Shown one piece after another: positions 7,545 through 39,616 of a stretch of 39,992 nucleotides of DNA. The stretch is from a virus (taxonomy: Duplodnaviria; Heunggongvirae; Uroviricota; Caudoviricetes). Under the pieces are notes generated by a model. That model was not told where the DNA came from and did no database searches. It saw only the letters and a program-made list of their open reading frames with translations. Within the stretch, counting starts at the first letter, position 1. Every line of letters begins with the position of its first letter. The stretch spans positions 1 through 39,992 of IMG/VR virus record IMGVR_UViG_2875722834_000002, one strand, 5' to 3'. The position numbers and the translations under genes were made by a program.

Positions 7545-8486
7545 ATGAGCACTAAATTAACCGGCTATGTATGGGATGGTTGCGCTGCATCAGGCATGAA
7601 ATTATCCAGCGTGGCAATTATGGCCCGCCTGGCTGATTTCAGTAATGACGAAGGTGTGTGCTGGCCATCAATTGAAACTATTGCCCGTCAGATTGGCGCG
7701 GGGATGAGTACCGTCAGGACGGCTATCGCACGGCTGGAAGCAGAAGGCTGGTTAACGCGTAAGGCGCGTCGCCAGGGTAACCGCAATGCGTCGAATGTTT
7801 ATCAGCTTAACGTTGCGAAGCTTCAGGCAGCGGCATTTTCTCAACTGTCAGATTCTGACCCGTCAAAATCTGACGCATCAAAATCTGACCCGTCAAAATT
7901 TGATGCGTCGAAATCTGGCAAAAAAGCGGGTTTTCACCCGTCAGAATCTGGCGGGGATCCGTCAGTAAAATCAAAACATGATCCGTCAGATAAAAAACCT
8001 TCTCGTCCGGACGCTTCGCAACCGGACACGCAGACGGATGAACAGGATTTTTTAACTCGCCATCCTGATGCGGTTGTATTCAGCCCTAAAAAGCGCCAGT
8101 GGGGAACGCAGGATGATTTGACCTGCGCACAGTGGCTCTGGAAAAAAATCATCGCCCTGTACGAGCAGGCTGCCGAATGTGACGGCGAGGTGGTTCGTCC
8201 CAAAGAACCGAACTGGACAGCCTGGGCAAACGAAATTCGCCTGATGTGTGTGCAGGATGGTCGTACTCACAAACAAATCTGCGAGATGTACAGCCGCGTC
8301 AGCCGCGATCCGTTCTGGTGCCGTAACGTGCTCAGCCCGTCGAAGTTGCGGGAAAAATGGGATGAGCTTTCCCTGCGCTTATCACCGTCCGTCAGCACGT
8401 ACACCGAAAAACGCGAAGACCCGTACTTCAAATCCAGTTACGACAACGTGGACTACAGCCAGATCCCGGCAGGATTCAGGGGGTGA
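7545..8486 (+). CDS. Replication initiation / replisome-organiser protein (lambda O-like, N-terminal winged HTH)
   Basis: N-terminal HTH-like region, internal Ser/Asp/Lys-rich linker encoded by iteron repeats, located after the cro/YdaT-like genes. Confidence 0.7.
   Translation: MSTKLTGYVWDGCAASGMKLSSVAIMARLADFSNDEGVCWPSIETIARQIGAGMSTVRTAIARLEAEGWLTRKARRQGNRNASNVYQLNVAKLQAAAFSQLSDSDPSKSDASKSDPSKFDASKSGKKAGFHPSESGGDPSVKSKHDPSDKKPSRPDASQPDTQTDEQDFLTRHPDAVVFSPKKRQWGTQDDLTCAQWLWKKIIALYEQAAECDGEVVRPKEPNWTAWANEIRLMCVQDGRTHKQICEMYSRVSRDPFWCRNVLSPSKLREKWDELSLRLSPSVSTYTEKREDPYFKSSYDNVDYSQIPAGFRG
7847..7998 (+). repeat. Iteron array inside the O-like gene (putative phage replication origin)
   Basis: About 8 imperfect copies of a 15-bp unit cGTCAaAATCTGAC(c/g) (e.g. 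7861-7875, 7876-7890, 7891-7905), ending in ccgtcagataaaaaac. Confidence 0.6.
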
Positions 8487-26329: not shown

Positions 26330-26478
26330 CGGCTGAATACCTCACTGATCGCTTCTTTGACTGCGCCAGTTACTGGCGCATTAATCCCTTCGAATTGCTG
26401 AATATGCCGATCAGTGAAATTCCCTTGCTGGTCAGTCAGGCAAACAGGATAGAGCAGGAGAAACGCACACATGGCTGA
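26060..26478 (+). CDS. Tail assembly chaperone, -1 frameshift product (GT-like)
   Basis: Slippery site at 26311-26317 in X_XXY_YYZ register; the -1 frame stays open to 26478 and runs into the tape-measure start. Confidence 0.6.
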
Positions 26479-28426
26479 ATTTGAGCTTAAGGCGTTGATC
26501 ACCGGTGTCGACAGGCTTTCTCCCGCGCTGTCGAAAATGCAAAAGAAAATCCGGGGATTTAAACGCCAGGCGGAAGAAGCGTCACAGGGTGGGCTGGCGC
26601 TTGGTGGCGGACTGGCAGCGGGTCTGACGCTTTCCCTGAAATCTTATGCCGATCAGGAAAACGCCGCCACCGGGCTGAAAGTCGCCATGATGGATGCGAA
26701 CGGCGAGGTTGGAAAGAGCTTTCAGGACATCAATAAACTGGCTATTGGCCTGGGTAACCAGCTACCCGGTACAACGGCTGATTTCCAGAACATGATGCAG
26801 ATGCTGGTGCGTCAGGGGATCCCGGCAGAAAACATTCTTGGTGGTGTGGGTAAAGCGACAGCTTATCTTGCGGTACAACTGAAAAAAACACCGGAAGCGG
26901 CTGCTGAGTTTGCTGCAAAGATGCAGGATGCTACCGGAACGGCGTCAGAAGACATGATGGGGCTGTTCGACACTATCCAGAAGGCGTTTTATCTGGGCGT
27001 TGACGATACCAACATGTTGTCCTTCTTCACTAAAACCAGTTCTGTTCTGAAGATGGTGAACAAGGACGGTCTTCAGGCTGCACAGAGCCTTGCCCCCATC
27101 AGCGTCATGATGGATCAGATGGGGATGAACGGGGAGTCGGCAGGTAATGCCCTGCGAAAAGTTATCCAGTCCGGATTAAGCGTTAAGAAAATCAGGGACG
27201 TCAATAAAGTCATGGCCCGCCAGAGACTCGGGGTACAGCTCGATTTTACTGACGGCAAAGGAAGTTTTGGCGGTCTTGATAACATGTTCAGGCAACTGGC
27301 AAAGCTGCGAAAACTGACCGACGTTAAGCGAACAGGTGTACTTAAGGCAATATTTGGTGATGATGCCGAAACCCTTCAGGTGGTCAATGCACTAATCGAT
27401 AAAGGAAAGGATGGCTACGATCAGATCCAGCAGAAGATGAATAAACAGGCCAGCCTGAATAAACGTGTTCAGGCACAGCTTGGTACGCTGTCCAACCTGT
27501 GGGAGGCAATGACGGGGACCGCAACTAACGGCCTTGCGGCTATTGGCGGCGCATTTTCTGGTGACGCCAAAAATATCACGCAATGGCTGGGGGAGTTGGG
27601 GGAAAAATTCACGAAGTTTGCGGATGAAAATCCCCGGGTTATTCGCGGCGTCGTCGGGCTTGCTGCCGGTCTTGCGATTCTGAAACTGGGATTGATGGGC
27701 GTGGGCAGTGCCATCAGTATCGTCAGCAGGATCATGTCGATGACGCCGATTGGCATGATTGCGACGGCGATTGCCTTGGCTGCGGGATTAATTATCACTA
27801 ACTGGGATGTTGTTGGACCTTATTTCAAGAAGCTCTGGGAAACCATTGGTCCTTATTTTGAGGCTGGCTGGGAACTTCTGAAGAAGGTTTTTGCCTGGTC
27901 GCCGCTGGGGATGGTAATCAATAACTGGGGACCGGTTGTTAAGTGGTTTCAGGATATGTGGGACAAGCTGAAGCCAATTATTGAGTGGTTTACCGACAGT
28001 TCCGGTGACACGGTCGATGCCATTAACTCGGCGCAGTGGGGCGCGGGTGCTTATGATGCTTATGGGACGGGAATACCGGCGCGGGGATACACACCTTATC
28101 CGGCGCAGTCAAACAACGCCTCCGGTGACACGGTCGATGCCATTAACTCGGCGCAGTGGGGCGCGGGTGCTTATGATGCTTATGGGACGGGAATACCGGC
28201 GCGGGGATACACACCTTATCCGGCGGTAGATCCGGCTCAGTCAAACAACGCCTCCGATGCTACAGGCCCGAATCCCTTCATGATTAACAAAGCTTCTGCG
28301 CCAAAAGTTGACGGTGAGATCAAGGTCTCTTTTGTGAATTCGCCTCCGGGTATGCGGGTTATGGAAACGCGATCCAGCGGTTTTGATATAAATCACGATG
28401 TTGGCTATACGCATATTGGCAGATGA
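26471..28426 (+). CDS. Tail tape measure protein
   Basis: 651 aa with a helical N-terminal half, a hydrophobic segment and position after the chaperone pair. Confidence 0.85.
   Translation: MAEFELKALITGVDRLSPALSKMQKKIRGFKRQAEEASQGGLALGGGLAAGLTLSLKSYADQENAATGLKVAMMDANGEVGKSFQDINKLAIGLGNQLPGTTADFQNMMQMLVRQGIPAENILGGVGKATAYLAVQLKKTPEAAAEFAAKMQDATGTASEDMMGLFDTIQKAFYLGVDDTNMLSFFTKTSSVLKMVNKDGLQAAQSLAPISVMMDQMGMNGESAGNALRKVIQSGLSVKKIRDVNKVMARQRLGVQLDFTDGKGSFGGLDNMFRQLAKLRKLTDVKRTGVLKAIFGDDAETLQVVNALIDKGKDGYDQIQQKMNKQASLNKRVQAQLGTLSNLWEAMTGTATNGLAAIGGAFSGDAKNITQWLGELGEKFTKFADENPRVIRGVVGLAAGLAILKLGLMGVGSAISIVSRIMSMTPIGMIATAIALAAGLIITNWDVVGPYFKKLWETIGPYFEAGWELLKKVFAWSPLGMVINNWGPVVKWFQDMWDKLKPIIEWFTDSSGDTVDAINSAQWGAGAYDAYGTGIPARGYTPYPAQSNNASGDTVDAINSAQWGAGAYDAYGTGIPARGYTPYPAVDPAQSNNASDATGPNPFMINKASAPKVDGEIKVSFVNSPPGMRVMETRSSGFDINHDVGYTHIGR
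28001..28256 (+). repeat. Perfect 120-bp tandem duplication inside the tape-measure gene
   Basis: 28001-28105 is identical to 28121-28225; copy 2 carries a 12-bp insertion (gtagatccggct) before the shared cagtcaaacaacgcctccg. Confidence 0.9.
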
Positions 28427-28856: not shown

Positions 28857-28882
28857 ACCTTACATTAATTTATGTCTTTCAT

Positions 28883-28904
28883 GCCCACTTCGGTGGGCTT
28901 TTTT
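28883..28904 (+). terminator. Intrinsic terminator after the inserted small gene
   Basis: Hairpin gcccac-ttcg-gtgggc followed by TTTTTT. Confidence 0.75.
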
Positions 28905-28919
28905 ATATCCGGAGTTTAT

Positions 28920-30374
28920 ATGACGTGGAAAGACAGGCTTCAGGACGCGTCATTTCGCGGTGTGCCGTTTAAGGTTGAAGAAGAAAGTGCGGGAACAGGT
29001 CGCCGTGTGGAAACACACGAATATCCGAACCGCGACAAACCCTATACCGAAGATCTGGGAAAAGTCACTTTCCGCCCGTCCATCACGGCTTATGTGGTGG
29101 GCGATGACTGCTTTGACCAGCGCGATCGCCTGATTGACGCGCTGAATAAACCCGGTCCCGGCACGCTTGTCCACCCGACTTACGGTGAGCTGAAAGTCTG
29201 TGTTGACGGAGAGGTTCGGGTCAGCACATCGAAAAGTGAAGGGCGTATTGTCCGCTTTGACCTGAAGTTTGTCGAAGCGGGAGAACTCTCTTACCCCACA
29301 TCAGGTGCGGCGACGGCGCAGACGCTGATGTCATCCTGTTCTGCACTGGATGACTGCATCAGTGACAGCTTCAGCGGTTTCAGTATCGATGGTGTGGCGG
29401 ATTTCGTGCAGAACGACGTTATCGGTAATGCCAGCATAATGCTGGGGTATGTTTCTGATGCGATGAAAGTGGTGGATTCTGCCGTATCGGATGCCGCCAG
29501 GCTGTTGCAGGGGGATATCTCGGTACTTCTGCCGCCGCCATCGTCAGGCAAAAATTTCGTTGAGCAGGTGCAGAAAATGTGGCGTACCGGGAAACGCCTT
29601 TATGGTAACGCCAGCGACCTGGTCACCATGATCAAAACGCTTTCCGGTGTCAGCCTCGGCAGCGATCTGCAACCGCGCGGCGTCTGGAAAACGGACAGTA
29701 AAACCACCGCCACGGCGACGCAGCAGCGTAACGTGGTTGCCAGCACCCTTCGTGCGACCGCAATCAGCGAAGCGGCGTATGCCGTCACCCGATTGCCTGC
29801 GCCAACAACTTCCGCGGTGATGCAGAATGCCGCAGTGGGGCAGTCAACAACTTCCGCGGTGATGCAGAATGCCGCAGTGGGGCAGTCAACAACTTCCGCG
29901 GTGATGCAGAATGCCGCAGTGGGGCAGTCAACAACTTCCGCGGTGATGCAGAATGCCGCAGTGGGGCAGTCAACAACTTCCGCGCAGAGCACCGGCTGGC
30001 CTTCCGTCACGCATCCGGCACTGAACAATGCACCGGCGGTGAAAAACACGGTTGACCTGCCAACGTGGGAAGAACTGACTGACATTCGCGACACACTGAA
30101 TACGGCAATTGATAAGGAGTTGTCCCGTACAACCAGTGATGCGCTGTTTCTGGCGCTGCGCCGGGTGAAAGCAGATCTGAATGCGGATATCAACACGCGC
30201 CTTGAACAGTCTGCTCGGATCATTCAGCGCACGCCGGATGAGGTCTTACCCGCGCTGGTGCTGGCGGCGACCTGGTTTGATAACGCGGCGCGTGACGCGG
30301 ACATTATCCGGCGTAATGCCATTACGCATCCCGGCTTTGTGCCGGTGATCCCTCTGAAGGTGCCAGTGCAATGA
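28920..30374 (+). CDS. DNA circulation protein (Mu N-like)
   Basis: ATG at 28920 with GGAG RBS; position after the tape-measure gene; contains an internal 14-aa x4 repeat. Confidence 0.7.
   Translation: MTWKDRLQDASFRGVPFKVEEESAGTGRRVETHEYPNRDKPYTEDLGKVTFRPSITAYVVGDDCFDQRDRLIDALNKPGPGTLVHPTYGELKVCVDGEVRVSTSKSEGRIVRFDLKFVEAGELSYPTSGAATAQTLMSSCSALDDCISDSFSGFSIDGVADFVQNDVIGNASIMLGYVSDAMKVVDSAVSDAARLLQGDISVLLPPPSSGKNFVEQVQKMWRTGKRLYGNASDLVTMIKTLSGVSLGSDLQPRGVWKTDSKTTATATQQRNVVASTLRATAISEAAYAVTRLPAPTTSAVMQNAAVGQSTTSAVMQNAAVGQSTTSAVMQNAAVGQSTTSAVMQNAAVGQSTTSAQSTGWPSVTHPALNNAPAVKNTVDLPTWEELTDIRDTLNTAIDKELSRTTSDALFLALRRVKADLNADINTRLEQSARIIQRTPDEVLPALVLAATWFDNAARDADIIRRNAITHPGFVPVIPLKVPVQ
29803..29984 (+). 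repeat. Perfect 42-bp tandem repeat, 4.3 copies, in frame inside the DNA circulation gene
   Basis: Unit caacaacttccgcggtgatgcagaatgccgcagtggggcagt at 29803, 29845, 29887 and 29929, plus a 14-bp partial copy; encodes TTSAVMQNAAVGQS x4. Confidence 0.95.
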
Positions 30375-34046: not shown

Positions 34047-34967
34047 ATGCATCGCATAGACACGAAAACCGCGCAGAAGGATAAGTTCGGCGCGGGTAAG
34101 AACGGTTTTACCCGTGGTAACCCCCAGACCGGCACGCCTGCCACCGATCTGGATGATGACTACTTTGACATGTTGCAGGAAGAACTTTGTAGCGTTGTTG
34201 AGGCATCCGGTGCCAGTCTGGAGAAGGCGCGGCACGACCAGCTGCTTACCGCGCTTCGTGCGCTGCTGTTAAGCCGCAAGAATCCGTTTGGCGATATCAA
34301 ATCGGATGGCACGGTGAAAACGGCTCTCGAAAACCTTGGAATTGAAAGGGTTGAGCAGCTCAATAACGAAACGAGAATTTATACCGGGGCCGATGGCTCT
34401 TATCTTTCCGCCAGAGGCGATGGGCAATTTGGTATTTTCGATCCATCACGGGGATTTATTCCTCTGGGTGTTCAGCAGGGTGGGACGGGAGCCAGAGATG
34501 CAGAAGGGGCAAGGGACAAACTTGGTTTGGGCCGGATTGAGCAGCGAGATGGTGAAACGGTAATTTATTGCGACGATAAAAAAACTGCATATTTTACAGC
34601 ACGCGAAGATAATCAGTGGGGGCTTTTTGACGGCACAAAATTCGTACCATTGGGGGTTCAGCAAGGCGGTACTGGTGCGAACGATGCAGCCACGGCCAGA
34701 AATAATCTGGGGATGGGCAATGCAGCAACAGGCCATGTAAGAACTGGCAAGGTCTCACGGTCCGGTGATAAATTATTTGATACCCCGTTCCCCAACGAAT
34801 GTACTGCCATTGCATTCGGCGTAATGATTGGCCAAGCCTGGATGTTCTCTCCCTATGTCACGTACCTTAATAAGACGGGTTTTGGTTTTGATGGTCGGTG
34901 TTGGAGTGGCACTAGTGTTCTCCAACCATTCGCTGAAGATGTTTATTACATTGCCTGGGGAAAATAA
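34047..34967 (+). CDS. Side tail fibre protein
   Basis: Conserved N-terminal region then a variable C-terminus with internal repeats ([11 protein letters not shown]...LG twice). Confidence 0.8.
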
Positions 34968-34968
34968 G

Positions 34969-35385
34969 ATGACATATCAATACAGCGCTAAGAACAACGC
35001 ATTTTTTCGTACTGCTGAGCTGGCGAATTATGAGGATGCGGGTTGGGATCTATCTGACCTGGTTGACGTAACCACTGAGCAATTTACTGCGTTCACTCAG
35101 GATCGAACCGTTGATGGATTAGTGCGCATCGCAGGCAATGACGGCATGCCAACATGGGGTGAAATCCCCCCACGTACACCAGAAGAACTTGAAGCAGATG
35201 CGGTGTCCAAAAAAACATCCCTTATCGCATATGCAACACATATTATTGACCCACTTAAGGATGCTTTTGATGGTGACTATATTGATGATGCAGATAAGCC
35301 AAAACTCACGGCGTGGCAAAAATATCGCTATGCACTGACAAAGGTTGACCCAGTCAACCCTGTCTGGCCTGAGATGCCAATATAG
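34969..35385 (+). CDS. Tail fibre assembly chaperone (Tfa)
   Basis: ATG at 34969 two bases after the fibre stop; 138 aa. Confidence 0.75.
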   Translation: MTYQYSAKNNAFFRTAELANYEDAGWDLSDLVDVTTEQFTAFTQDRTVDGLVRIAGNDGMPTWGEIPPRTPEELEADAVSKKTSLIAYATHIIDPLKDAFDGDYIDDADKPKLTAWQKYRYALTKVDPVNPVWPEMPI

Positions 35386-35454
35386 GAACGTTTATGAAAA
35401 TGCAGAAATAGCGCGCAAATGGCATCGTTCCTGTTTTTGTCAGGAGGAGCAATC

Positions 35455-36012
35455 ATGCTTATTGGCTATGTTCGCGTATCAACAAATGACCAGAACACCG
35501 ATCTACAACGTAATGCGTTGAACTGTGCAGGATGTGAGCTGATTTTTGAAGATAAGATCAGCGGCACTAAGTCCGACCGACCGGGACTGAAAAAACTGCT
35601 CAGAACATTATCAGCAGGTGACACTCTGGTAGTCTGGAAACTGGACCGACTGGGGCGCAGTATGCGGCATCTTGTCGTGCTGGTGGAGGAGTTGCGCGAA
35701 CGTGGCGTTAATTTTCGCAGCCTGACGGATGCTATTGATACCAGCACACCAATGGGACGCTTTTTCTTTCATGTGATGGGTGCCCTGGCTGAAATGGAGC
35801 GAGAGCTTATTGTCGAACGTACTAGGGCGGGCTTTGCCGCAGCACGACAAGAAGGGAGGAATGGTGGGCGAAAGCCAAAGCTGACAGTAGAACAATGGGA
35901 GCAGGCTGGCAGGTTGATTGAATCGGGAATATATCAGCAGCAAGTCGCACTGATTTATGATCTGGGTATTTCAACGGTGTATAAAAAATTCCCTGTAGCA
36001 AGTAAACCATAA
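35455..36012 (+). CDS. Serine-recombinase DNA invertase (Pin/Gin/Hin/Cin family)
   Basis: ATG at 35455 with AGGAGG RBS; N-terminus MLIGYVRVSTNDQNTDLQ with the catalytic Ser; C-terminal HTH; 185 aa. Confidence 0.85.
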   Translation: MLIGYVRVSTNDQNTDLQRNALNCAGCELIFEDKISGTKSDRPGLKKLLRTLSAGDTLVVWKLDRLGRSMRHLVVLVEELRERGVNFRSLTDAIDTSTPMGRFFFHVMGALAEMERELIVERTRAGFAAARQEGRNGGRKPKLTVEQWEQAGRLIESGIYQQQVALIYDLGISTVYKKFPVASKP

Positions 36013-36038: not shown

Positions 36039-36734
36039 TTATGCACTATTTTTAGGTCTTGTAACCCGAGGTGGGAGTTGTTTGGTTATATGTTCAAGTG
36101 ATTTTTTGCCCAAGATAGTTCTTTGGACAAAACTTTCTATAGCTTCTAGCATTTGTTCGAACTCACTTTTATTCGGGCTCCAACTGCGATGTGCGGCGGC
36201 GTTTCCTGCATCAATTACAGAAGATATAACGCATGCCTCAGTGTCGCCTATGACTCCATCTTGTTTTAATTTTTCAACTTTTTCACCAAGCGGCAAACCG
36301 GGGTGAATTTGTAACAGTTCAGCAGTTCGATCAAAAATCGTCCGTAAACCGATGGACGAAAGGATGAAATGGTCAGAAGTATATGAAGAATACATTTCAT
36401 TAAATATTTGAAAGAGCTGACGATCAACTGATTCAAGCTTGGATAACCATATCGGAGCTTGAAATGTTTCAGCGGCAGGATAGGTAGTGATCATATCTAT
36501 AGGCGTTTCTACAAATTCACCATCACGATATTCGTGGGTAGTATGCTCACTGAAGTGTTCGTTGTGGTGATAGAAGACAGTATCACAGCCATTGCATTGG
36601 AGTAGGTGATGGTAATGGTACCCATAAACTGGATATTGGGAATCCTCCCAGCTAGTGGTTAGCTTCCCATGCACAGTGCAGTTACGTAACCCACCGCATG
36701 TAGGGCAAAGAGCCTTGAGTATTTCCTTTTTCAT
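36039..36734 (-). CDS. Zinc-ribbon protein with C-terminal DUF4145-like helical domain (candidate Abi/defence gene)
   Basis: N-terminal CPTCGG...C...CNGC zinc ribbon; C-terminal ...GEKVEKLKQDGVIGDTEACVISSVIDAGNAAAHRSW...FEQMLEAIESFVQRTI resembles DUF4145; AT-rich; own sigma70-like promoter. Confidence 0.6.
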   Translation of the reverse strand: MKKEILKALCPTCGGLRNCTVHGKLTTSWEDSQYPVYGYHYHHLLQCNGCDTVFYHHNEHFSEHTTHEYRDGEFVETPIDMITTYPAAETFQAPIWLSKLESVDRQLFQIFNEMYSSYTSDHFILSSIGLRTIFDRTAELLQIHPGLPLGEKVEKLKQDGVIGDTEACVISSVIDAGNAAAHRSWSPNKSEFEQMLEAIESFVQRTILGKKSLEHITKQLPPRVTRPKNSA

Positions 36735-37392: not shown

Positions 37393-38490
37393 TCAAGAGG
37401 TCTTATTTCTGCTCCTTTGGAGCTCTTCAAAACGATTATGTAAAGATTTCGGATACAGTTCGGTATATACCTGCCATAGCACGTTTAATGAACGATGCCC
37501 TGTAACCTGGGCGACTTCCTCAATACTAAAACCAGCCTCAAATAAGCGACTTGCCCCTTCTCTACGCAAATCATGGTATCGCAGATCCTTAATACCTAAT
37601 TTGCTTCTTACTCTCTGAAATCCCGCAGTAACAGAAGTGCTGTTATATGGAAAAATGAATTCCGATTTTTGGGGCTGTCGTTGGACGATATCCCAGGCTT
37701 CCCCAAGCAAGGCTACTTTCATGTGGTTGCCTTCCTTTTTGCGTGGATCTTTCCTGTCTCTTACGAGTATAGATTTTTGTTCCTGGTCGAGATCTTCCCA
37801 TCGTAACCGGCATACTTCTCCGATTCGCATACAGGACCATACAGAAAATTTGAGGATATCAACGAACGGAATTTTTGAGCATTTATGAGTAGATCGTTGT
37901 TGAAGGCCTGCAATGAGCATGTCCAGTTCATCAGATGCTGGTCTACGATTACGACGGTTTGATTTACCAATCAAACCAAGTTTAAGTAGATATGGGCGAG
38001 CGCTTATCGCCGGGTTTGATGTGTAATTAATTCCGTATACAGGTTTGGCCGCATCCAGAACACTGCCAAGATAACTAACATCGTGGCTGACTGTTGCAGG
38101 ACCTGCACCAGCGTTGTTTCTTAGCCTGCAATGTTCAATTACGTCATTTTCTGTCAGTTCAGATAGTTTGATCGCGGAGATGTCACTATCCATAAGCAGT
38201 TCCAGCACATATCTTTTAGTACGGCCTGCTTTACCTCCGGCATTTGGGTCATTTAAATATTTGTGTAGTAAGTCACGGACTGTAAGTCCGTCAACTGCAT
38301 TTGATGATGGAATGCCATATAGATCTAATTCCATCACTTTCTGTGTGCCCCATGTTTTGGCATGAGCATGTTTAGGGAATGTTTTGCTTTCCCTGTAAGT
38401 GATAACACCTTTTTCTTTGATAATCACATTACAGCGATAGCGTGGTGTGCCATCGGATTTTAGTCGTTTCTCTATGTTATAGTACGCCAT
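37393..38490 (-). CDS. int: Tyrosine integrase (dusA-associated type)
   Basis: 365 aa; C-terminal catalytic region with HDLRR, GHRS and a Tyr in ...WQVYTELY; divergent from dusA. Confidence 0.85.
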   Translation of the reverse strand: MAYYNIEKRLKSDGTPRYRCNVIIKEKGVITYRESKTFPKHAHAKTWGTQKVMELDLYGIPSSNAVDGLTVRDLLHKYLNDPNAGGKAGRTKRYVLELLMDSDISAIKLSELTENDVIEHCRLRNNAGAGPATVSHDVSYLGSVLDAAKPVYGINYTSNPAISARPYLLKLGLIGKSNRRNRRPASDELDMLIAGLQQRSTHKCSKIPFVDILKFSVWSCMRIGEVCRLRWEDLDQEQKSILVRDRKDPRKKEGNHMKVALLGEAWDIVQRQPQKSEFIFPYNSTSVTAGFQRVRSKLGIKDLRYHDLRREGASRLFEAGFSIEEVAQVTGHRSLNVLWQVYTELYPKSLHNRFEELQRSRNKTS

Positions 38491-38578: not shown

Positions 38579-39616
38579 ATGCACGATAATCATGAAACAA
38601 AAAAAATTAATCAAACCAGCGTGATGCCTGAAAAAACTGGTGTTTACTGGAATTCTCGGTTTAGCATTGCTCCTATGCTCGACTGGACGGACAGACATTG
38701 CCGCTATTTCTTGCGTCTGCTTTCCCGCAATACGTTGCTGTATACCGAAATGGTGACCACAGGGGCGATTATTCACGGTAAAGGTGATTATCTGGCGTAC
38801 AGTGAAGAAGAACATCCGGTAGCGTTGCAACTGGGCGGTAGCGATCCGGCGGCGCTGGCGCAGTGTGCAAAGCTGGCAGAAGCGCGCGGATATGATGAGA
38901 TCAACCTGAATGTCGGCTGCCCGTCTGACCGGGTGCAGAACGGCATGTTTGGTGCGTGTCTGATGGGTAATGCGCAGCTGGTTGCCGACTGCGTGAAAGC
39001 GATGCGCGATGTGGTGTCGATTCCGGTGACGGTGAAAACGCGTATTGGCATCGACGACCAGGACAGCTATGAATTTCTCTGCGATTTCATCAATACCGTT
39101 TCCGGCAATGGCGAGTGTGAGATGTTCATCATCCACGCACGTAAAGCCTGGCTTTCGGGGTTAAGCCCGAAAGAAAACCGTGAAATCCCGCCGCTCGATT
39201 ATCCGCGTGTGTATCAACTGAAGCGTGACTTTCCGCATCTGACAATGTCGATTAACGGTGGTATCAAGTCGCTGGAAGAGGCCAAAGCACACCTGCAACA
39301 TATGGATGGCGTGATGGTCGGGCGCGAGGCGTATCAGAATCCGGGTATTCTGGCGGCGGTAGACCGGGAGATCTTTGGTTCCTCGGATACCGATGCCGAT
39401 CCGGTGGCGGTAGTGCGCGCCATGTATCCGTACATTGAGCGTGAACTCAGCCAGGGGACGTATCTCGGCCATATTACCCGGCATATGTTGGGCTTGTTCC
39501 AGGGTATTCCTGGCGCGCGGCAGTGGCGGCGTTATTTAAGTGAAAATGCCCATAAAGCGGGTGCAGACATTAATGTGCTGGAACACGCGCTCAAACTGGT
39601 GGCGGATAAGCGTTAA
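38579..39616 (+). CDS. dusA: tRNA-dihydrouridine synthase A; the true start may be the internal ATG at 38624, and the 5' end may be prophage-derived
   Basis: Full-length Dus family protein matching enterobacterial DusA over essentially its whole length. Confidence 0.9.

Follow-up and report, generated by a model that had tools for sequence, protein, structure and literature searches.

The window analysed here, the whole stretch of 39,992 nucleotides (positions 1 to 39,992) of the IMG/VR virus record IMGVR_UViG_2875722834_000002 (Caudoviricetes), carries a tail-fibre gene, a single gene for a tail-fibre assembly chaperone (Tfa) and an intact gene, pin, for a serine DNA invertase of the Gin/Pin/Cin/Hin family. 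Comparison with related prophages suggests, with a probability that we put at roughly 0.55, that a fibre switch of the Din family (Gin/Cin/Pin/Hin) was converted by a core-to-core exchange into an effectively locked single foreign cassette, the invertible interior of the module having been swapped for one foreign set made up of a variable fibre part (Sv) and its Tfa. Fibre inversion switches are textbook knowledge and the finding of another would be ordinary. The present locus offers a clean natural case of a receptor-binding cassette that is up to 99.9% identical in unrelated phages, with breakpoints a few bases from the points at which invertases cleave, and is relevant to the long-standing debate over site-specific versus illegitimate recombination as the origin of fibre mosaicism.

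The invertase and the hybrid crossover sites

The fibre gene (34047..34967, + strand) is an open reading frame of 306 aa that matches tail-fibre families of PHROG (phrog_1396, E=8e-53). Its constant N-terminal part (Sc) extends from 34047 to the left crossover core and the remainder is encoded by the cassette. It is followed by Tfa (34969..35385, + strand, 138 aa; Pfam Caudo_TAP, E=3e-18; phrog_188) and, after a gap of 69 bp, by pin (35455..36012, + strand, 185 aa). An earlier note on this DNA had described a complete serine invertase placed directly after the fibre and Tfa genes, with no inverted second fibre/Tfa set, and both descriptions hold, the 69 bp being all that lies between Tfa and the invertase gene. 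The catalytic domain of Pin (PF00239, Resolvase, E=5e-51) is followed by a C-terminal HTH_7 domain (PF02796, E=2e-11), and over 181 residues the protein shares 78% identity with Mu Gin; its best matches among solved structures are the Gin structures 3UJ3 and 4M6F (E=4e-92). The first 22 residues are those of Gin, including the nucleophile Ser9 (MLIGYVRVSTNDQ), and the DRLGRS motif is kept, so that the loss of the catalytic serine, which the earlier note had named as a sign of a dead remnant, is not what is seen. With its Ser9 resolvase domain, HTH_7, similarity to Gin and a length within the class of about 180-195 aa, Pin has the features of a Din invertase, and it is 100% identical to the Pin of a two-cassette prophage (L001, strain LR-46).

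A candidate recombinational enhancer (35476..35539, + strand) lies within the 5' end of pin, where Mu gin has the two blocks GTATCAACAAATGACCAGAA and TGTGCAGGATGTGA as well. It comprises two candidate 15-mers with starts 49 bp apart, putative Fis sites by comparison with the hin and gin enhancers; conserved coding sequence overlaps them, and the region is under coding constraint too. Separately, a deletion of one nucleotide (GGG to GG) at pin nt 375 (near window position 35829) was observed in the prophages L002, L003 and L009, all at dusA, of which L002 and L009 have a single cassette and L003 has two. Since the frameshifted gene occurs in single- and two-cassette prophages alike, the defect is unrelated to cassette number, and the deletion reads as an inherited null allele that is independent of the type or number of cassettes.

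The prophage of the window is one of a family. At dusA, about 27 complete Escherichia coli genomes have this prophage in a form with a full two-cassette segment, arranged as Sc, site, Sv and Tfa, inverted Tfa' and Sv', site and invertase, with identical flanks and four canonical half-sites. Two of them, L001 and L018 (strain AVS0790), have collinear flanks and 1.85-kb segments in opposite orientation that are 90% identical. The native junction of Sc with SvA was found at full length in 19 complete E. coli genomes and a synthetic 'inverted' junction of Sc with SvB in 516. These inversion isomers, together with the occurrence of both types of Sc-Sv junction, establish that the invertase lineage of the window does switch canonical segments. 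A query of 3.9 kb (gp48, fibre, Tfa, pin and neighbouring genes) matched in part 4,165 of 5,426 complete E. coli genomes, at a median of two places per genome.

Against this family the boundaries of the exchanged interior are sharp. In a blastn comparison of the window with L001, homology ends at 34339, within the fibre gene, and resumes exactly at 35387, with 97% identity on the Sc side and 99% on the other; the short tail fibre genes of SfV, SfI, SfII and SfIV likewise match the window Sc and end at 34339. Among the phage invertase loci listed, homology starts at 35386-35391 in all but one; the set of matches to deposited phages comprises 120 records, 57 of them covering at least 80% of the query. 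The interval with no homology to the two-cassette sisters (34340-35386) thus coincides with a cassette of 1049 bp (34338..35386, + strand), and the replacement runs exactly from one crossover dinucleotide to the other.

The left crossover site, equivalent to pixL, is the 26-mer CTCTCGAAAACC-TT-GGAATTGAAAGG (34324..34349, + strand), recognised from the comparison with the sisters and from a half-site weight matrix. It consists of a canonical outer half CTCTCGAAAACC (34324-35), a TT core (34336-37) and a non-canonical inner half GGAATTGAAAGG (34338-49), occurs once in the window, where shuffled sequences lead one to expect 0 matches, and covers fibre codons 93-101. The crossover-like site that the earlier note had placed at the constant/variable junction of the fibre is therefore borne out by the end of sister homology at 34339 and by the first 16 nt of the site, which are those of the left site of the two-cassette sisters, CTCTCGAAAACC-TT-GGTTTGGGAGA(G/A); the outer half, the core and the next GG are shared. 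The right site, equivalent to pixR, is TGCCAATATAGG-AA-CGTTTATGAAAA (35375..35400, + strand), with a non-canonical inner half TGCCAATATAGG (35375-86) formed by the last Tfa codons and stop (TAG, 35383-85, inside the site), an AA core (35387-88) and a canonical outer half CGTTTATGAAAA (35389-400). From the core through the outer half, the site matches pixR of the sisters L001 and L003 letter for letter (TTCTCCCAAACC-AA-CGTTTATGAAAA). The placement is that of the G, C and P segments: the left site falls where the constant part of the fibre gives way to the variable part, and the right site just upstream of the invertase gene. From the right core downstream to the pin ATG there are 68 bp, and from the Mu gixR core to the start of gin 67 bp.

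The earlier note had found no convincing inverted partner upstream of the invertase. A partner does exist at 35375-35400, recognised only through the comparison with related two-cassette prophages that the note had proposed; a full inverted repeat is absent, and in this respect the note was right. Two sites with inverted outer halves and complementary core dinucleotides, TT and AA on the + strand, are present, and each retains the 12-bp outer half of the phage side and the core, the inner half being cassette sequence. Canonical half-sites score +10 to +18 with the matrix and the left outer half scores +14.9, whereas the left inner half (scored as CCTTTCAATTCC) and the right inner half TGCCAATATAGG score -2.6 and -2.1, so that neither site has two recognisable halves. 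A scan of the 40-kb window ranked the two outer halves as its top two half-sites, a ranking that is partly circular because both were in the training set of the matrix. The search for further copies of the crossover site, also proposed in the note, gave no other full site in the 40-kb window (next-best candidate 10.5, with one half below zero), and neither an inverted copy of the left 26-mer nor a generic hix/gix consensus was matched there with up to 3 mismatches. A second target of the invertase within the window was rejected on the result of the matrix scan. A sequence coding for LGLG at about 34519-34544, which resembles a canonical inner half, was set aside as a by-product of the fibre repeat motif; its other half is a poor match by eye and it is absent from the top full-site results of the matrix, the sequence not having been scored alone.

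The cassette in other prophage backbones

The window holds one Sv+Tfa set only, with none of the opposed second set of a two-cassette segment; on the minus strand, from the right site inward, the longest open frame is of 23 codons. The variable fibre part (34341-34718) has two repeats of about 62 aa, each ending in ...GGTGA..A..AR.(N/K)LG(L/M)G, followed by a C-terminal tip. There is one copy of the repeat in L107, there are two in the window and three in L017. Two further loci, L108 and L109, combine the same repeats with a different tip, and therefore the cassette is itself a mosaic.

Of 5,426 complete E. coli genomes, only 3 contain cassette DNA (34338-35386), yet the prophages that carry it are of three types; it was absent among 50,697 deposited phage genomes, and the 23-mer at its right end had no exact match in GTDB species-representative genomes. 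In an assembly collection, 42 index blocks contain the exact Tfa protein; ten places from that look-up, together with loci from other searches, served to compare backbones. The carriers include SfV-like prophages at dusA, P2-like phages, no fewer than three further Mu-tail types and one type with 'Sheath_initiator/Wedge1' baseplate genes, and they have at least two invertase lineages; most of these backbones retain an intact invertase. In each of the flank contexts compared, P2-like and several Mu-tail types among them, an invertase gene lies downstream of the cassette.

Copies of the cassette with two repeats are 92-99.9% identical in other backbones and their flanks only 49-77%. Compared with the window, the left 300 bp, the cassette and the right 300 bp are 52%, 99.9% and 76% identical in a P2-like backbone (L010), 56%, 94.5% and 77% in a Mu-tail type (L008), and 53%, 93% and 53% in a Mu-tail type from Citrobacter (L104). 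For the 'Wedge1' type with three fibre repeats (L017) the values are 49%, 80% and 64%, its Tfa part being 100% identical.

At least five left outer half-sites (CTCTCGAAAACC, TTCTACAAAACC, TTCTCCAAAATC, TTCTCACATACC and CTCTATCAAACC) and at least seven right ones (CGTTTATGAAAA, CGTTTTTGAAAA, CATTTTTGAGAA, CGTTTCCGATAA, CGTTTAAGAAAA, CCTTTTTTATAA and CCTTTGGTAGAA) stand beside the cassette. The cassette always starts with GGAATTGA(A/C)AGG directly after the TT core and always ends with TGCCAATATAGG directly before the AA core, the junctions in all backbones being ...ACC/ATC-TT-GGAATTGA... and ...CCAATATAGG-AA-C.... Depending on the backbone, the first flank mismatches fall 4-8 nt to the left of the TT core and 2-6 nt to the right of the AA core. 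For the L005/L011 type, whose backbone is the most divergent, the distances are 4 and 2 nt, which places the breakpoints at most 3 nt from the left core and at most 1 nt from the right core, the latter in non-coding DNA. Flank identity falls to some 50-77% at 2-7 nt from the core dinucleotides, and at 2-4 nt in that most divergent backbone. Breakpoints at the cleavage dinucleotides in every flank context compared point to recombination at the cores.

Two loci carry the end of the cassette in another setting. In L107 (4001-5400, Citrobacter portucalensis, beside thrS) and in L006 the end ...CCAATATAGG-AA is followed by CCTTTGATGGAA; there is no invertase gene downstream of the cassette in the L107 sequence that was read, nor within the roughly 200 bp available of L006. 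These loci may represent an ancestral operon free of invertase, and a source of the cassette, with flanks serving as quasi-sites, or they may represent the module after the invertase was lost.

Hybrid sites are uncommon elsewhere. Of 50 Gin/Pin-homologue loci from different species whose upstream DNA was long enough, the majority show canonical inner halves, with segments of 1.3-2.4 kb, and clear hybrid cases are rare, examples being L072 (Enterobacter) and L097, the latter with a single cassette and a remnant of 340 bp. In L072 (5592-5992, Enterobacter sp. ECC-219) an open reading frame of 113 aa that encodes Sv only starts with MINLGLG and ends exactly at the site core; the site lies upstream of a Gin-like invertase, its inner half scores -23, and it is a second, independent hybrid right site. 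In about 20 of 79 homologue loci from draft genomes (among loci L032-L096) the contig ends 60-270 bp upstream of the invertase gene, probably through assembly breaks at inverted repeats or at the mixed orientations of active segments.

Orientation, trans action and alternative explanations

In all 18 assemblies with both cassette and invertase (W, L002, L004/L012, L005, L007-L011, L013-L017, L019 and L104-L106) the fibre is in frame, in the ON orientation, and none is inverted; at the loci that include the left junction, the contig is continuous through both junctions in every case. The cassette was thus seen in one orientation in the assembly census and the two-cassette sisters in both. Inversion in silico gives a truncated fibre of 107 aa ending in ...LENLPILASQARQG, with the predicted junction sequences CTCTCGAAAACCTTCCTATATTGGCA and CCTTTCAATTCCAACGTTTATGAAAA. 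Eight predicted OFF products, each specific to a backbone, were looked up among about 15 billion proteins and gave 0 matches, the ON-state control being found; an exact match was required and the result is weak. A scan of viral contigs for a pattern specific to the inverted junction gave no match, and a metagenome scan gave two loci, one in the ON state and one with a different Tfa.

In Din inversion a dimer occupies each site and the two dimers synapse at the Fis-bound enhancer (PMC3798978). Because a Din invertase needs a dimer on each site as well as the Fis-bound enhancer, inversion in cis between the hybrid sites is expected to be very inefficient, which agrees with the census. Such sites would be very poor substrates and the fibre would be effectively locked ON, an inversion, if any occurred, merely truncating it. 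The intact Pin would then most likely persist by acting in trans on canonical segments of co-resident prophages, or as a passenger. Such action has precedents: the e14 P segment is a trans substrate for PinQ, PinR and PinE alike (PMC12529663), and in strain EC958 trans action between prophages has been inferred (PMC12529663, PMC4134206). The window Pin probably still acts in trans. The suggestion of the earlier note that the invertase acts on another target is plausible by that precedent (PMC12529663), with no such target inside the 40-kb window. As for the cassette, recombination at the crossover cores may have brought it into the module and spread it through unrelated phages, and the likeliest agent is an invertase that used hybrid or quasi-sites. 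If two prophages lie in opposite orientation in one chromosome, two inversions in succession between them are a possible route to a precise cassette swap. A model of integration as a circle was rejected since the two cores are reverse complements, that is inverted, and not direct repeats.

Several points weigh against a locked cassette of this origin. Cin uses quasi-sites at low frequency (Iida and Hiestand-Nauer 1987, as far as cited in PMC4134206), so that rare inversion at hybrid sites is possible; and if invertases move the cassette by way of hybrid sites, such sites are not wholly dead. The low activity of the hybrid sites is a prediction from sequence, and a trans target for the window Pin is a proposal. 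The loci without invertase, L107 and L006, would fit either direction of evolution, capture into a switch or loss of the invertase. The orientation census is small, skewed to related isolates and reports the majority state of each culture only, and the look-up of OFF products is weakened by the absence of the window's own fibre allele from the collection of about 15 billion proteins.

The same exchanged, locked cassette could have been moved not by an invertase but by recombination on short homology, with the conserved half-site and core sequences serving as microhomology for phage Rad52-like recombinases or for illegitimate events. This we regard as unlikely. Each junction has 5-16 bp in common through the outer half, core and GG, temperate phages are known to carry out relaxed homologous recombination on short, diverged stretches (PMC3945230), and at the left junction, which lies in a conserved fibre motif (..NLG..), the homology is in part a matter of coding constraint. 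The L005/L011 type shares only about 5-7 bp per side, however, and its breakpoints still lie 2-4 nt from the core, the right one in non-coding DNA; and breakpoints that are the same in every flank context fit cleavage at a 2-bp core better than scattered microhomology events. Alternatively, Pin may flip the 1049-bp cassette between the hybrid sites as a working single-cassette ON/OFF switch, the OFF state giving the 107-aa product. The complementary TT/AA cores with canonical outer halves in inverted orientation, a spacing from right site to pin like that from gixR to gin, the enhancer-like blocks, the intact Pin and the retention of an intact invertase in most cassette backbones all agree with a switch, but both inner half-sites score below zero, 0 of 18 assemblies are OFF when two-cassette relatives occur in both orientations, OFF products were not found in the protein collection (a weak point), and the OFF state provides no alternative fibre and no obvious benefit to the phage. 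We consider such a switch quite unlikely.

That the locus is a simple decay remnant, in which a single deletion event stripped a two-cassette switch of one cassette and of half its pixR, leaving a module now being lost and an invertase deprived of its role, is in our view very improbable. Two-cassette relatives do predominate at the locus (about 27 genomes against 1), pin is frameshifted in L002, L003 and L009, and single cassettes with remnants occur in other species (L097, for example). Yet the window cassette matches neither sister cassette and both ends are replaced, not one; the identical cassette and ends recur in unrelated backbones with different invertase lineages; the frameshift allele also stands beside a two-cassette segment (L003) and is hence unrelated to cassette number; and the window Pin is intact. 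The earlier view of the module as a degenerate remnant of a host-range switch is upheld as to descent, in that the module derives from a fibre switch with about 27 two-cassette sisters. 'Degenerate' is wrong: Pin is intact and 100% identical to that of L001, both cores and outer halves are retained, and the foreign cassette was swapped precisely between the cores in an arrangement that recurs in unrelated backbones.

Beyond the exchanged, locked cassette itself, we tentatively entertain, as possible though short of an even chance, that Din crossover cores are universal docking points at which invertases shuttle receptor-binding cassettes among P2-like, SfV-like and other Mu-tail phages. If so, locked single-cassette modules would be footprints of transfer, and the invertase would be an exchanger of cassettes as well as a switch. 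The locus also points to a design rule for exchanging host-range cassettes from phage to phage. An intact invertase beside fibre genes does not amount to a working switch; when such a locus is annotated or its host range predicted, the presence of four canonical half-sites should be verified.

Known systems and neighbouring features

Among the closest kin of the window module are the two-cassette SfV-like prophages at dusA (LR-46, AVS0790, HH107) and the e14 P segment with PinE, the dusA prophages sharing the backbone and the integration site. With these sisters the window has in common Sc, the outer half and core of pixL, the core and outer half of pixR, pin, the DUF4145 gene, dinI, int and dusA, at 97-99% identity in the common regions. 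Their 1.85-kb segments have the inverted repeat TTGGTTTGGGAGA(A/G) and are seen in both orientations, whereas the window has a different cassette of 1.05 kb without inner repeats, in one orientation only.

The G segment of Mu with Gin and the C segment of P1 with Cin resemble the window in the invertase (78% identity of Pin to Gin), in a left site within the fibre gene at the constant/variable junction, in a right core 67-68 bp upstream of the start of the invertase gene, in enhancer-like blocks in the 5' end of that gene, and in a Tfa (U-like) co-transcribed with the variable fibre part. Mu differs in that its Sv-U sets are two and opposed and all four half-sites are canonical (gixL, TTATCCAAAACC-TC-GGTTTACAGGAA; gixR, TTCCTGTAAACC-GA-GGTTTTGGATAA), the window having one set and only two canonical outer halves.

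The quasi-sites of Cin (cixQ) are similar in having one good half and a matching core, as products of recombination between a true site and a quasi-site. Sequences like recombination sites at the ends of host-specificity segments were reported by Sandmeier (1994), to the extent that this work is cited in PMC8986868 and PMC4134206, and the principle of such mosaic boundaries is therefore not new. In contrast to these cases, the window cassette is hybrid at both ends and near-identical in many backbones, and the outcome is a single, apparently locked cassette and not an additional invertible arrangement. PinQ and PinR of the cryptic prophages Qin and Rac are serine invertases beside fibre genes whose demonstrated substrate is the e14 P segment elsewhere (PMC12529663), and they are the precedent for trans action of an invertase lacking a good substrate in cis. 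They are only 38% identical to PinE (PMC12529663); the window Pin, unlike them, is a close relative of Gin and Pin, and trans action on its part is what we infer.

Most of an SfV-like prophage fills the window; its early region is lambdoid and its baseplate genes gp44-48 are of Mu type. It is integrated beside dusA (38579-39616, + strand), the integrase gene being at 37393-38490 (- strand). A DinI-like gene lies with the fibre module at the right end, as does a DUF4145 gene (36039-36734, - strand, 231 aa) between pin and dinI/int. The DUF4145 protein has a Cys-rich N-terminal region, matches phrog_1305 ('DNA binding protein') and is kept in all the dusA sister prophages examined; the gene may be an accessory gene expressed in lysogeny. 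PADLOC gave no matches for the DUF4145 protein or for Pin, and a scan for promoters and terminators near pin gave nothing informative.

Repeats were also observed away from the fibre module. A perfect tandem repeat of 42 bp (29803-29984, 4.3 copies, 100% match) lies in a DNA-circulation-like tail gene (28872-30374), where it codes for (TTSAVMQNAAVGQS)x4 and seems to have expanded in frame very recently. A perfect tandem duplication of 120 bp (28001-28225, 1.9 copies) lies toward the 3' end of an open reading frame of 651 aa (26471-28426). In the early region, four copies of the 15-bp unit TCTGACCCGTCAAAA (7854-7917) within the open reading frame 7545-8486 resemble the iterons of a lambdoid replication origin.

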